A DNA stretch of 64,000 nt from Bdellovibrionales bacterium (GTDB taxonomy: Bacteria > Bdellovibrionota > Bdellovibrionia > Bdellovibrionales > UBA1609), in the NCBI GenBank assembly GCA_965261545.1, contig CBDHDF010000002.1, forward strand, positions 544,001-608,000. The letters run 5' to 3'. Both the position numbers and the translations under genes were made by a program. Under the pieces are notes generated by a model. It had not been told where the DNA came from, made no database searches, and saw only the letters and a program-made list of their open reading frames with translations. Each line of letters starts with the position of its first letter. Positions within the stretch are counted from its first letter, which is position 1. Below are positions 54,948 to 60,197 of this stretch, piece by piece.

Positions 54948-55037
54948 TTTAAACGGTAAATCGAAAAAGATGGTAATTTTTTGCAACATGGATAGGTATA
55001 TTTTCTTGACATACTTTTTCATAGACGAATGGCATTG

Positions 55038-55415: not shown

Positions 55416-56292
55416 CCCCCAAGAGTCTTTGAGATGATTGTCGAAAATATTTTTAAAAAAATAAAAGGATATTTTTTGTCTGAAGACACATAAAGAGCTT
55501 TGTGCAAGAGAGGGAAACTCCTCAATAAGGGTTTGAAGTATTTGGGCATTTGATGAGTAACCTGCAAAGGTCATATTGCAGGCGAGTTGAAGAATGAAAA
55601 AGAAAAATATTTTTGGGGTGATTTTCCTGTTTCTTAGAGTTTTATTTTCATTAACGCAGTGATTCTTGTTGAATTCTTTGGGTAAATAAGAAATAATATT
55701 CTTGTGGTTTGTGATGCGAACTTGTCATTTTGTTCGCTCCTTTGTAAATTTAAAATTTTGAAGTCTCCAATGCTCCTTTAAAAATAATGTCACATATTTT
55801 ATTTGCTAAAACAACACCTTTCTTAGGATAAATTCAACCATTCTTAAGCGGTAAATCGAAAAAGATGGTCACCCAAAGTCTCGTTCAAACATACATGCCA
55901 TATGCAAAAAAAATAGTCTTGAGCCTCCGAGTTCCCCAAGAGAACTTCAAGCATTTAAATGTGACTAAAGTACAGAAATCGCTTAGGAACTTGGTTGCCC
56001 TCACACAATTTAGATGTAGACAGCCGATCAAGATGCTTAGCACTCTTTTCCCAGTCCTCAATTATCGTGGCCAGCCGCTCCGCGTCCGTCACTCTAATTG
56101 CCGCTTCGCTAGACGGACTGGGGAGTGCAGCGCATCTTTCACTCTTTCCCTTGCTCGCTGGGGCCTCCTCTCACGGGTGAGAGGCCCCAAACGAGCAAGC
56201 CAAAAACCGATAAGCAGGCGAAAAATTTATTATTACAATGAATGGCAGAGAACAAATTTAGTTACAAAGAACCACCTAAGGAGGAGGAACCT

Positions 56293-57300
56293 ATGAAGTA
56301 CGATCATTATATCGCCGTTGACTGGGCGCAAAGCAACATGGCCATTGCAAGAATGACAGTCAAATCTAATGCCATCAAGGCCACTGATGTGAAAGCTGAT
56401 GTTAGTGAACTCCAAATCTACTTGAAGAGTCTCAAAGGCACAAAAGCTCTCACCATTGAAGAAAGTACGGCTTCACAGTGGCTATATACAGAGTTAAAAG
56501 ATCATGTTGATGAACTCTTGATTTGTGATCCCTGTCGCAATAAATTACTGAGTGAGGGACCCAAGAATGATAAAATTGATGCTCAGAAGCTGGTTCATCT
56601 GTTGCGTTCAGGTCTTTTAAAAAGAGTCTTTCATTCAGGGGATGATTTTATTTATCTTAGAAAAATTATCAGTGGATATGAAGATGTTATCAAAGCAGGA
56701 GTTCGAAGCAAAAACCAGAGATCAGCATTGTTTCGAGCCTCCCATGAAAATGCGAAGAAAAAAACAGAGTTAAAAAGATCAGAAGATATATTCGTACTCC
56801 TTGGATTGGATACGAGCATTGCCTTTTATGAAGAAGAGAAAAAGCGTTATGACGCAGAATTCAAGAGACTGGCCAGAAAACACAAAGAAATTAAACACCT
56901 CCAGGGAATTCCAGGAATTGGACACATCAATGCTGTTAAAATCGTAGCTCGTGTTGTAGACCCTCATCGATTTGAACGCAATTCTTGGTGGAGTTACTGT
57001 GGACTAGTGAAGCTGGCTAGAGTTAGTGGTGGAAAAATTTATGGAAAGAAAAACTCTAGATCTTGTCGGCAAATGAAATGTGTTTTTAAGGTGGCTGCAT
57101 TGACAGTTATTGGTGGGAAAAATGAATTCAATGACTGGTATGAGCAGTTAATTACAGAAAGAAATTATCCACCACACAAAGCCAGGAACGCCATTTCAAG
57201 AAGAATAGCTGCTTTAGCATTAGGAGTTTTGAAGTCTGAAGAAAAATTTAAACCCTACAGGAAATACAAAAATGTAAAATATATTAAAACAGCCTCATAA
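56293..57300 (+). CDS. IS110-family recombinase/transposase, intact
   Basis: IAVDW, TIEES, KNDKIDA (DEDD), L.GIPGIG and YCGL.....SGG motifs; RBS AGGAGGAGG before the ATG at 56293. Confidence 0.92.
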   Translation: MKYDHYIAVDWAQSNMAIARMTVKSNAIKATDVKADVSELQIYLKSLKGTKALTIEESTASQWLYTELKDHVDELLICDPCRNKLLSEGPKNDKIDAQKLVHLLRSGLLKRVFHSGDDFIYLRKIISGYEDVIKAGVRSKNQRSALFRASHENAKKKTELKRSEDIFVLLGLDTSIAFYEEEKKRYDAEFKRLARKHKEIKHLQGIPGIGHINAVKIVARVVDPHRFERNSWWSYCGLVKLARVSGGKIYGKKNSRSCRQMKCVFKVAALTVIGGKNEFNDWYEQLITERNYPPHKARNAISRRIAALALGVLKSEEKFKPYRKYKNVKYIKTAS

Positions 57301-57840
57301 AAATCTCAGTAGTTCTTTAAGCATATAGCGAAAAGTAGACAATGACTTTATTATGAGGTGAGGATAGATAGCTCGTGCGCCACGAAGCGCAAATACATCG
57401 GTGGTGAAAGTCCACACGAGGAAGTGCCTCAGCACACCTCGCAGCGAGTCTTGGGCTCAAGGAGGTAACGACATGAGTTAAGCGTAGATAGCAAGAAAGA
57501 AGGGCCGTAAGCCGCAAGGTTGAAGTGATTGAGCCTCGAAAGCATTCCATGTGTGGTGGTCGACACTGTGAGTAAGGTGGAAGACAACATCATTCTGCTC
57601 TCACTGAGGAGGACAGGGTGGCACCGCCGGGGTCTGAGAGCACGGCACTTCTTGAAGATGTATTTGTGAACGTGGGAGACCCTCATAGTTCCCTAGGATG
57701 GGGTATTGCCAAACAAGCCTAAACAGCAAGGATGGTGAAATAGCTGTGGGGGAGTCAGCGAATCCATAGTACTGATGAAGCGAGTAATGATCGTGGAGGG
57801 AAGGGATTCAGGTAATTTTAACTTTGGAAGGGAAACGTAA

Positions 57841-59435
57841 ATGGGAGAGACAAAGTCCAATAACATTACGGAAACGAAACTGAAGAAGGTAGCTCAACTA
57901 TCTGGTAAGAATCCCGAGATGGTTTTCATGGGGCTTATGCCTCACGTGAACAGGGAGTCACTCACCAGATGTTTCCACGAGTTGGATGAGAGGAAGGCCG
58001 TGGGAATAGATCGAGTGACCAAGGAGGAGTATAGGCAAGACCTTGCCAAGAATATAGATAATCTAATTCTTCGCATGAAAACTATGACCTACTGCCCCTC
58101 CCCGGTCAGAGAAGTGCTCATTCCCAAAGACCTCTTTCAACGGCCAGTTCAGGCCACTGGGGATCAGCAACCTAGAGGATAAGATGGTCCAGCGTATGTT
58201 CAGTAAAATTCTCGAAGCCATCTATGAACCGATTTTCCAAGACTGTTCATTTGGATTCCGTCGAGGAGTAGGCTGTCACAAGGAGAAATCCTGCCATCAG
58301 GCAGTGCTACCAGCATCTCTATCATGGGAAAGTGGGCTATATCATTGATTTGGATTTAGAAAATTACTTTGGTTCTATCGACCATAAGAAATTAGTGTCC
58401 ATACTCAAGATGAAAATCACGGATGATCGGATGAAGATCTGAGAATCAAAGTTCAGCAGAAAATATCTGGGTGCTTTCGTTCGTTGATGGGAGCCAAGAC
58501 ATTTTGTAGAAACCGAAGCTTTCTCCTGACTTGCCAGAAAAATGGCATAGAACCTAAAGATGCTAAATATGCTATTTCAAGGAAAACTTCCCTCATTTAT
58601 GACTCGAATTCGCCCACCCCCTGAATAGTTACGATTTGGATTTAGAAAATTACTTTGGTTCTATCTGTCCATACTCAAGATGAAAATCACGGATGAAAGA
58701 TTCATAAGGTATATTGTGAGAATGCTGAAGGCTGGAGTTTTGTCTGATGGGGAGCTCAGGATGACCGATGAGGGTACACCTCAAGGCTCATGTGTCAGCC
58801 CCGTCCTTTCGAATATCTTTGCACACTACGCCTTTGACATTTGGTTCAAAGGTGCAGTCAAGAAGTACACGAGAGGACAAGTGGAAATGTATCGCTACTG
58901 CGATGACATCATATTCTGCTGTGAACTTCAGGAGGATGCTGAGAAGGTTTACAGATCACTCCAAGGACGAACCGAGAGGTTTTCCCTTAAGATGAATGTA
59001 GAGAAAACCAAGCGTATCACCTTTTCTAAAGCCAAGGCTCGACGAGGTGAGAAGCAAGGTACCTTCGACTTCTTAGGTTTCACCTTCTACATAAGTAAAC
59101 GCAGAGGGCGCATACTGCCCAAGATTAAATCCAATGGACGTAGAATAAGGAAGAAGCTACAGGTAGTCAAAGAGTGGTGCCGAGCCAACCGTCACAGAGG
59201 TACATTGTGCGAGCTGTGGGAGAGGTTTTGCAAGAAGCTCAGAGGACACGCCCAGTACTATGCTGTCTCCGATAATTACAAAGGAGTGAAGAATTTCTTT
59301 CACTACGCCATTAGGATTTTCTTCAAATGGATGAACAGACGTAGTCAGCGAAGATCTTTTGATTGGAATAAGTTTAACAGGTTCCTTGCTAACTTTCCTC
59401 CACCAAGGGTTCGCATAGTACACAAGCTGTATTGA
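57841..59435 (+). pseudogene. ltrA: Group II intron reverse transcriptase/maturase, disrupted
   Basis: KAVGID, V.IPK, RPLGI (shifted frame), SFGFR, GTPQG..SP.L.NI, RYCDD, FDFLGFT; frameshifts near 58130 and 58280 plus an IS66 fragment. Confidence 0.88.
58427..58632 (+). mobile_element. IS66-family right-end fragment
   Basis: Encodes LRIKVQQKISGCFRS..GA..FCR.RSFL.TC.KNG and ends cctgaatagttac. Confidence 0.8.
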
Positions 59436-60197
59436 TATAGTTGAGTGAGTAGAGTTATCGTCCGCCTATTGCCTTAATTGGGCACGATGGGTGGGAACGG
59501 GGGTTGGGTCGGGTAACCGGCCCTTCTACCCAATAATCCATTCGATAGCCATAAAGGTTCATTTAAGCGATTAGTACGTCCTCTATTCCTTAACATTTAC
59601 GATGACCCAAATTGAAGATTGTAGGAAGGAGCATTTTCCAACCGGTCTTGAATTAAGAGTGTCCAAATAGACGAATCATAGGAATATGTTGTTTTAGAGA
59701 TGTAAATAAAAAGCCATTAACCATGAAGAAGAAGTGCTAGAAAGAACTTGGTGAGAGATTTCGGAAGGACGGGTGACCGTATGCAGCAAAAGATGGTAAT
59801 TTTTTGCAACATGGATAGGTATATTTTCTTGACATACTTTTTCATAGACGAATGGCATTGATATCTAGTAGTTCTTTTATATTAAGCCATTTATGTTAGC
59901 TGACAATTAAAATGCCCCACCGTCGCCAATGAAAAGTGGCCACTTTTCAGAGGAGGACCTATGGTGATTTTTGGCATTGTCAACCGAGACGCATATAATC
60001 AATTGATATTACTCATAAAAAGGCTCCGAGCTGATAAGAACTCCTTTTGGGTGCAAAATTTCACCTAGTTTGACCCACCCAATTTCACCTAGTTTGACCC
60101 ACCCGATTTCACGAAGTTTGACCCACTGAATTTCACCAAACATTGACCCACTTAGATCTTCATAGATATTCTTTCTGCGCTACGCATTAACGAGGAG

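Follow-up and report, generated by a model that had tools for sequence, protein, structure and literature searches.

The closest described relatives of the locus reported here are the bridge RNA or seekRNA elements of the IS1111 group, such as ISEc11 (PMC11187229, PMC11208160), which combine a DEDD and serine recombinase with a guide RNA located 3′ of its gene. They also display 7-bp subterminal inverted repeats, a single internal loop with two target-matching stretches, a right-end −35 hexamer and natural retargeting through changes in the guide, all of which are found again below. For ISEc11, the 3′ region is described as essential, and a short target-binding RNA suffices and acts in trans (PMC11187229). 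The other partner of the locus also has known counterparts. RmInt1 and RmInt2 of Sinorhizobium meliloti are endonuclease-less group II introns nested in ISs, which home repeatedly into one conserved target; RmInt2 is described as targeting a non-coding IS feature, the inverted repeats of ISRm17, with relaxed specificity, and intron control of IS spread has been proposed in this setting (PMC4615759, PMC5894124). In IStrons (IS607/IS605), which associate a group I intron and an omegaRNA, a transposon transcript likewise links splicing and guide-RNA function, the whole element being the intron, splicing competing with the guide and the arrangement being presented as evolved and conserved (10.1101/2023.11.20.567912).

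In the window (the whole 64-kb stretch of DNA analysed), a group II intron interrupts the guide gene of an IS110-family element of IS1111 type, which sets this element apart from its group. The intron occupies positions 57375-59534 of the + strand (2,160 nt), in the same sense as the recombinase gene, whose stop codon ends at 57300; its GTGCG start thus lies 74 nt 3′ of the stop, as the first-pass annotation had stated, and its terminus is ...CCCAAT at 59534. These ends agree with the group II consensus (GUGYG at the 5′ end, AY at the 3′ end), and the Rfam model group-II-D1D4-6 (RF02005) recognizes 57407-57642 with 135.6 bits for a cutoff of 49. Four copies of the 24-nt 5′ exon are present in the genome. 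In one the intron comes next, and in the other three (C10:515057, C10:506300 and C11:785184) the 3′ exon follows without interruption. The intron is therefore inserted precisely between exons that are contiguous in three alleles out of four, and the ligated junction predicted in that annotation is exact to the base. The same skip from 57374 to 59535 is present in contigs from all four public runs compared, which represent a single sample and whose contigs drop minority alleles and break at repeats.

Comparison of the filled junctions with an empty target places the IS110 element at 55851-59848 between two copies of a CG core (55849-55850 on the left). An end had been proposed at 59787; this is wrong, since the inverted repeat at 59771-59780 is an inner one and the element extends to its right end at 59848, which is followed by the right core CG 59849-59850 and by 10 bp from the outer side of an IS4-like terminal repeat (together 59849-59860). 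On the other side, 55416-55850 (− strand) is the 5′ part of the IS4-like host element and matches the IS110-free sequence C4:3518-3951 at 97.5%. This IS110-free element (C4:3518-4888) carries two terminal repeats with a one-base difference next to the CG, and the IS110 target is the left one. The host is called IS4-like from the transposase of the copy on contig C10, which matches NF033592 (IS4) at 92 bits, under the cutoff of 115. IS4321 and IS5075, by comparison, target Tn21.

The recombinase gene (56293-57300, +) is intact and encodes 335 aa, or 352 aa from an upstream ATG at 56242. Both Pfam domains, PF01548 and PF02371, score above cutoff, and the protein combines the RuvC-like DEDD domain and the Tnp domain with catalytic serine that define the IS110 family. 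Residues D10, E56/E57, D93, D96 and S245 are invariant in 30 homologs and align with D11, E60, D102, D105 and S241 of IS621. The enzyme is nevertheless distant from those with solved structures (profile E value of 1.5e-9 to IS621), and NCBIfam NF033542 gives 100.6 bits, below its cutoff of 140.

Among three IS1111 features taken from section 12 of PMC11208160, two are observed. The guide RNA lies 3′ of the gene, and a 7-bp inverted repeat (55858-55864 in the left end, 59837-59843 in the right end) brackets a 14-bp donor junction, within the 7-17 bp of the group. The third, a tendency of the right end to be much longer than the left, is not seen, the left end measuring 442 nt (55851-56292) against 388 nt for the right end without the intron; the metagenome homologs shown have short left ends. 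In the part of the right end that follows the RNA (59687-59848), a −35 hexamer at 59829-59834 lies 14 nt inside the end and, by analogy with PMC11187229, is predicted to contribute a promoter at the circle junction; a promoter scan found 7 candidates for 7.8 expected, which is the chance level. An extra feature with respect to the IS1111 group is the inner inverted repeat (55865-55874 and 59771-59780), which is conserved in the clade at 56 loci among the homologs L052-L131, its distances from the ends being about 16 nt on the left and 64-71 nt on the right. A third copy, present in the homologs shown, overlaps their ribosome-binding site and might base-pair with the left copy. As a separate observation, the left end has about four times the length that it has in the metagenome homologs shown, and its part 55875-56292 includes, near 56150-56200, a long imperfect hairpin with a 74% match elsewhere in the genome.

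That the guide RNA is located in the 3′ non-coding region and spans the intron junction, as had been supposed, is borne out by flank matches, covariation and model scores. We compared 80 metagenome loci with 54-63% protein identity, of which 76 had sufficient 3′ sequence to be anchored. Directly after the equivalent of the intron site, a first variable stretch matches the right flank of its own element with a mean of 5.87 positions out of 7, compared with 3.14 ± 0.18 (maximum 3.87) in 2,000 permutations of 39 distinct guides from 59 loci, the best of four registers being taken both ways. A second variable stretch matches the left flank (4.39 of 5, against 1.61 ± 0.17 and at most 2.22 when permuted; 41 distinct guides from 60 loci). 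As the homologs are mutually related, these permutation figures, like the shuffle figures below, are not to be read as probabilities. The donor side shows the same correspondence: in 59 of 59 loci the right end finishes with the same base as the guide has, and in 68 of 68 the left end starts with a base compatible with its guide (62 A:T, 3 G:C and 3 G:T wobble pairs).

RNAalifold on 47 sequences pairs columns 19-32, which all belong to the 5′ exon, with columns 99-114 of the 3′ exon. We scored 16 named target-loop pairs, including 12 from the closing helices at the junction: 96.6% of the cells pair and 11 pairs change on both sides; none of 500 shuffles reaches this covariation, and slid controls pair at 29-66%. 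The resulting RNA model gives 89.6 bits on each of two complete intron-free cassettes, one of which is within the alignment used to build it, and 42.5 bits on the interrupted copy. A location 5′ of the gene was considered and rejected, no match to the model being found at E≤1 in 55851-56292. The model matches 3 of 151 genomes of the order, the source genome included, and gave no match on five genomes with distant IS110 relatives; a search of genome contigs with the single recombinase returned distant relatives only. As a by-product, this provides a well-resolved bridge-RNA model for an uncharacterised IS1111-type clade.

In the window, the 5′ exon part of this RNA (57345-57374, the 5′ limit being approximate) contains the 5′ arms of the basal helices of the target-binding loop (57360-57365 and about 57369-57373), and the 3′ arm at 59578-59583 pairs with 57360-57365 across the intron. 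The first target guide (59538-59544) matches the core and the flank outside the right end at 7/7, and the second (59562-59569) matches the flank outside the left end and the core, also at 7/7. The donor-binding loop (59584-59686) lies entirely in the 3′ exon, with guides at about 59595-59600 and 59667-59673, so that the RNA displays both the target- and the donor-matching loops expected of the IS110 family. The insertion point falls on a bulge of the stem by which the target-binding loop is closed, 3 nt ahead of the first guide; the intron parts the 5′ arm of this stem from all four guides. This loop is contiguous in 73 of the 76 homologs, and two of the remaining three are cut by contig ends.

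To characterise the intron, we compared it with an intact copy of 1,873 nt at C7:389650-387778, which encodes a 435-aa RT/maturase (TIGR04416 at 315.9 bits, cutoff 300) in which a search for an endonuclease domain gave no match. The window copy differs by eight substitutions and by insertions of 7, 10 and 270 nt (58132-58138, 58281-58290 and 58396-58665) which break its RT/maturase gene (57841-59435, +). The intact ORF that autonomous mobility calls for is thus found in the C7 copy and not in the window copy. The 270-nt insertion consists of a multicopy-element fragment of about 200 nt between short duplications of the intron's own sequence, which look as if they came from template switching.

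Domains V and VI (59461-59534) were located by folding, an Rfam search having returned no domain V/VI match in the intron, and are identical in sequence to those of the C7 copy; domain V (59461-59495) has a 5-nt loop and the bulged A of domain VI is at 59528. EBS1 (GAGUAA, 57570-57575) was placed by covariation: this intron and two others have different hexamers at the same register of the loop, and each hexamer pairs at 5-6 of 6 positions with its own 5′ exon. Inspection by eye gave no consistent placement of EBS2. In the window copy, EBS1 pairs at 5/6 with the local IBS1, the last 6 nt of the 5′ exon up to 57374. The terminal loop 57602-57609 had been another candidate for EBS1; it was rejected because this loop holds alpha-prime (57604-57609), complementary to alpha at 57427-57432. 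Also rejected was the idea that the two changes of the window copy in this loop hide EBS1, as the accessibility calculation did not favour the intact copy. EBS1, alpha, alpha-prime, domain V and the bulged A are all preserved in the window copy.

A 5-nt domain V loop and an alpha-prime in a terminal loop are described as marks of group IIE/IIF introns, which also lack the endonuclease and have about 570 nt outside the ORF (PMC3753933). Since the intron shares all of these, we call it IIE/IIF-like, a likeness judged from structural marks, while noting that the ORF of the window copy is broken. RmInt1 and RmInt2, in contrast, belong to class D. Another relative in the genome, an ORF-deleted intron of 729 nt (C11:956222-955494), carries another EBS1 sequence, and all of this is complementary to the 5′ exon of that intron. 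A comparison of the intron protein with viral contigs found no relative.

The first-pass annotation had suggested that the intron homes into the guide RNA and rides on the IS. The distribution of the intron supports neither. Near-identical intron ends mark five unrelated genome sites with one insertion each: the window bridge RNA (occupied in one of four alleles), an antisense position in an IS1634 gene (one of seven, counted by the 5′ exon), an antisense position in another IS1634 gene (one of two, split in halves between two contigs), a repeat of ten copies next to an ISNCY fragment (one of ten) and a two-copy region (one of two, in halves and somewhat more diverged). Pairing with EBS1 reaches 6/6 at two of the other sites, against 5/6 at the window and C7 sites and 3/6 at the two-copy region. 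The window IBS1 hexamer is the same as that of the C7 site and is followed by A; EBS1 is unchanged in the window copy and pairs at 4/6 with the hexamer of 60 of 76 homologous bridge RNAs, and 54,380 positions of the genome match it at least as well as the window site does. No second intron-bearing IS copy or homologous bridge RNA was found in the genome or among the homologs, and no RT in 148 IS110-related loci, many of them on short contigs. Of the 26 viral sequences that matched a strict junction pattern, none had an RT or IS110 match, and the pattern was absent from 401 genomes of another phylum, a set without positive control; a loose pattern matched these genomes at about the level of the reversed control. 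The repeated occupancy of one conserved target that characterises RmInt1 and RmInt2 is thus absent, and the guide RNA is not a homing site of this intron.

If the intron is set aside, the window IS and its sister in the right terminal repeat are identical over 1,537 compared bases except for one, G59567. This base belongs to the second target guide, is private to the window copy and matches its own left-repeat target; since the lone difference is the guide base matching the element's own target, the element was therefore retargeted recently. It also represents a natural one-base guide switch tracking the left or right terminal repeat of the IS4-like element. Both complete intron-free cassettes carry A at this position, which mismatches the target of the window copy, and the assembly contains no intron-free parent with G59567. 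The sequence fits either order of intron arrival and retargeting move, and with an IS body otherwise identical to that of the intron-free sister, a recent move with the intron aboard is conceivable.

We propose, with a probability of about 0.72, that a relaxed-specificity IIE/IIF-like intron retrotransposed once, at an ectopic position, into the bridge-RNA gene, that its maturase then decayed and that this IS copy is likely dampened or silenced. The IS1111-type bridge-recombinase element lies in the terminal repeat of the IS4-like element, and the endonuclease-less, loosely specific intron would have entered its RNA gene. The site is usable, its hexamer pairing at 5/6 with EBS1 and being followed by A, and the intron, which has four other sites, is not specialised for it. 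Reverse splicing would here be ectopic, in a mode such as that described for endonuclease-less introns at replication forks (PMC5894124). The maturase gene would have broken afterwards, the ribozyme landmarks being kept as far as the sequence indicates. Bacterial group II introns are described as mostly truncated and situated among mobile DNA, and related maturases as able to splice in trans (PMC4424553); for the window copy, a working guide would probably require splicing in trans by the C7 maturase or a guide supplied by another copy. Among the IS110 copies examined in the assembly, none but that of the window combines an intact recombinase gene with both ends and a complete guide sequence: the copy at C10:516557 has lost the second guide and everything downstream, that at C10:517929 is cut inside the gene, and neither of the two complete guide cassettes has an intact upstream gene or a left end. 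The intron thus likely damps the family, unless it is spliced in trans. It would be one of several nested insertions crippling this family. The same RNA has been struck by further elements. At C10:515006 it is cut by an IS4, and among 28 matches in G008, which is a genome from the same family as this one, at least two complete and three one-sided cases show an IS1634-like element only a few bases away from the position of the intron.

It is a reasonable inference that recombination would be splicing-dependent in cis for this one copy. In one alternative, which we regard as unlikely, the intron was aboard before the last move, trans-assisted splicing yields the guide and the intron is IS cargo with splicing as the switch of recombination. 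In its fuller form, given the same low likelihood, this would be a natural splice-gated bridge recombinase, in which trans-assisted splicing completes the target loop, the last jump, into the left terminal repeat with the private G allele, took place with the intron, and the intron both uses and throttles the IS. The sense orientation and the intact ribozyme landmarks agree with this reading, as does the intact maturase at C7, splicing in trans by related maturases being known (PMC4424553); IS1111 elements can carry 745 bp of cargo (PMC11187229), and the guide allele fitting the window target is found only on the intron-bearing copy. However, only one of the four junction alleles contains the intron and neither a second copy nor a homolog does; the window copy's own maturase is broken, and the C7 maturase gene, whose expression this reading presupposes, lies antisense in an IS1634 gene. 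Less probable still is that splicing is irrelevant, the unspliced RNA guiding as such or the intron-free cassettes supplying the guide in trans. When the unspliced precursor is folded at minimum energy, the intron forms a side branch and neither the basal helix nor the two loops are lost. This prediction counts against a strict requirement for splicing; together with the two complete intron-free cassettes at 89.6 bits and the activity in trans of the IS1111 non-coding region (PMC11187229), it weakens the dependence on splicing. Yet both cassettes are without an intact upstream gene and left end, which makes their transcription doubtful, and both carry the A allele mismatching the window target. 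Furthermore, the catalytic core of group II introns grips the exon bases flanking the intron. Here the intron joins 3 nt from the first guide, and the core would have to grip the same exon bases.

It is also very improbable that repeat mis-assembly created the intron-in-IS arrangement or the private alleles. The junction between IS and intron is known from a single assembly, and the listed contigs from the public runs show the intron-free IS, the intact intron and A at 59567, none of them spanning from IS to intron. Collapsed contigs of this kind, however, lose minority alleles and break at repeats, and runs and assembly also disagree at the C10:814944 flank, where the runs show an intact intron. 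Each of the two junctions coincides to the base with an intron boundary, the exons on either side being contiguous in three alleles, and the IBS1 hexamer is identical to that of the C7 site.

The surroundings are rich in nested elements. About 83% of the 64-kb window is repeated elsewhere in the genome, 72% with three or more matches, and it is made up almost entirely of transposases of IS1634, IS21, IS3, ISKra4, ISNCY, IS4 and IS256 types. At 54956-55025, a single-copy mini-element of 70 bp consists of just two IS110 ends joined via a 10-bp direct repeat; it is flanked by CG cores within what is left of an IS4-like terminal repeat and could be mobilisable in trans. The region C10:505950-519150 contains an IS4-like element with outward-facing IS110 copies in both terminal repeats, both later broken by IS4, IS21-like and IS256-like insertions, with a nest of unrelated group II introns between the IS110 pieces. 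Further on, at C10:533800-534068, a 65-bp unit from the IS110 right end is present in four tandem copies. In G008 (L132-L189), a related IS110 with about 73% protein identity has expanded to 44 protein matches, mostly frameshifted. It shows several guide variants, each tracking a target of its own, and IS1634-like elements have inserted repeatedly where the first guide begins.

The locus also departs from two known arrangements that combine introns and ISs. In IStrons, the ends of the element are the group I splice sites, whereas here a foreign group II intron is internal to the element, in one occurrence, and its splicing would restore the guide instead of competing with it. Compared with RmInt1 and RmInt2, the part interrupted is a guide RNA and each of five unrelated sites was entered once. 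Our literature search, which covered mainly open-access main texts and included parts of PMC13626964, PMC7923331 and PMC11208158, returned no report of an intron within a bridge RNA or seekRNA; supplementary tables of surveys could list interrupted elements. The arrangement is real, precisely placed and apparently undescribed, and it is most likely a one-off, a chance hit rather than a dedicated partnership.

Group II introns nested in ISs are ordinary, and what appears new here is the bridge RNA as the interrupted part. The insertion point indicates where, within the stem of the target loop, splicing might be harnessed as a gate for RNA-guided recombination, and such gating could serve conditional bridge editing. 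The idea that introns restrain the spread of ISs is extended from transposase mRNAs to guide RNAs. Biologically, it represents so far one event within a decaying, IS-saturated genome.
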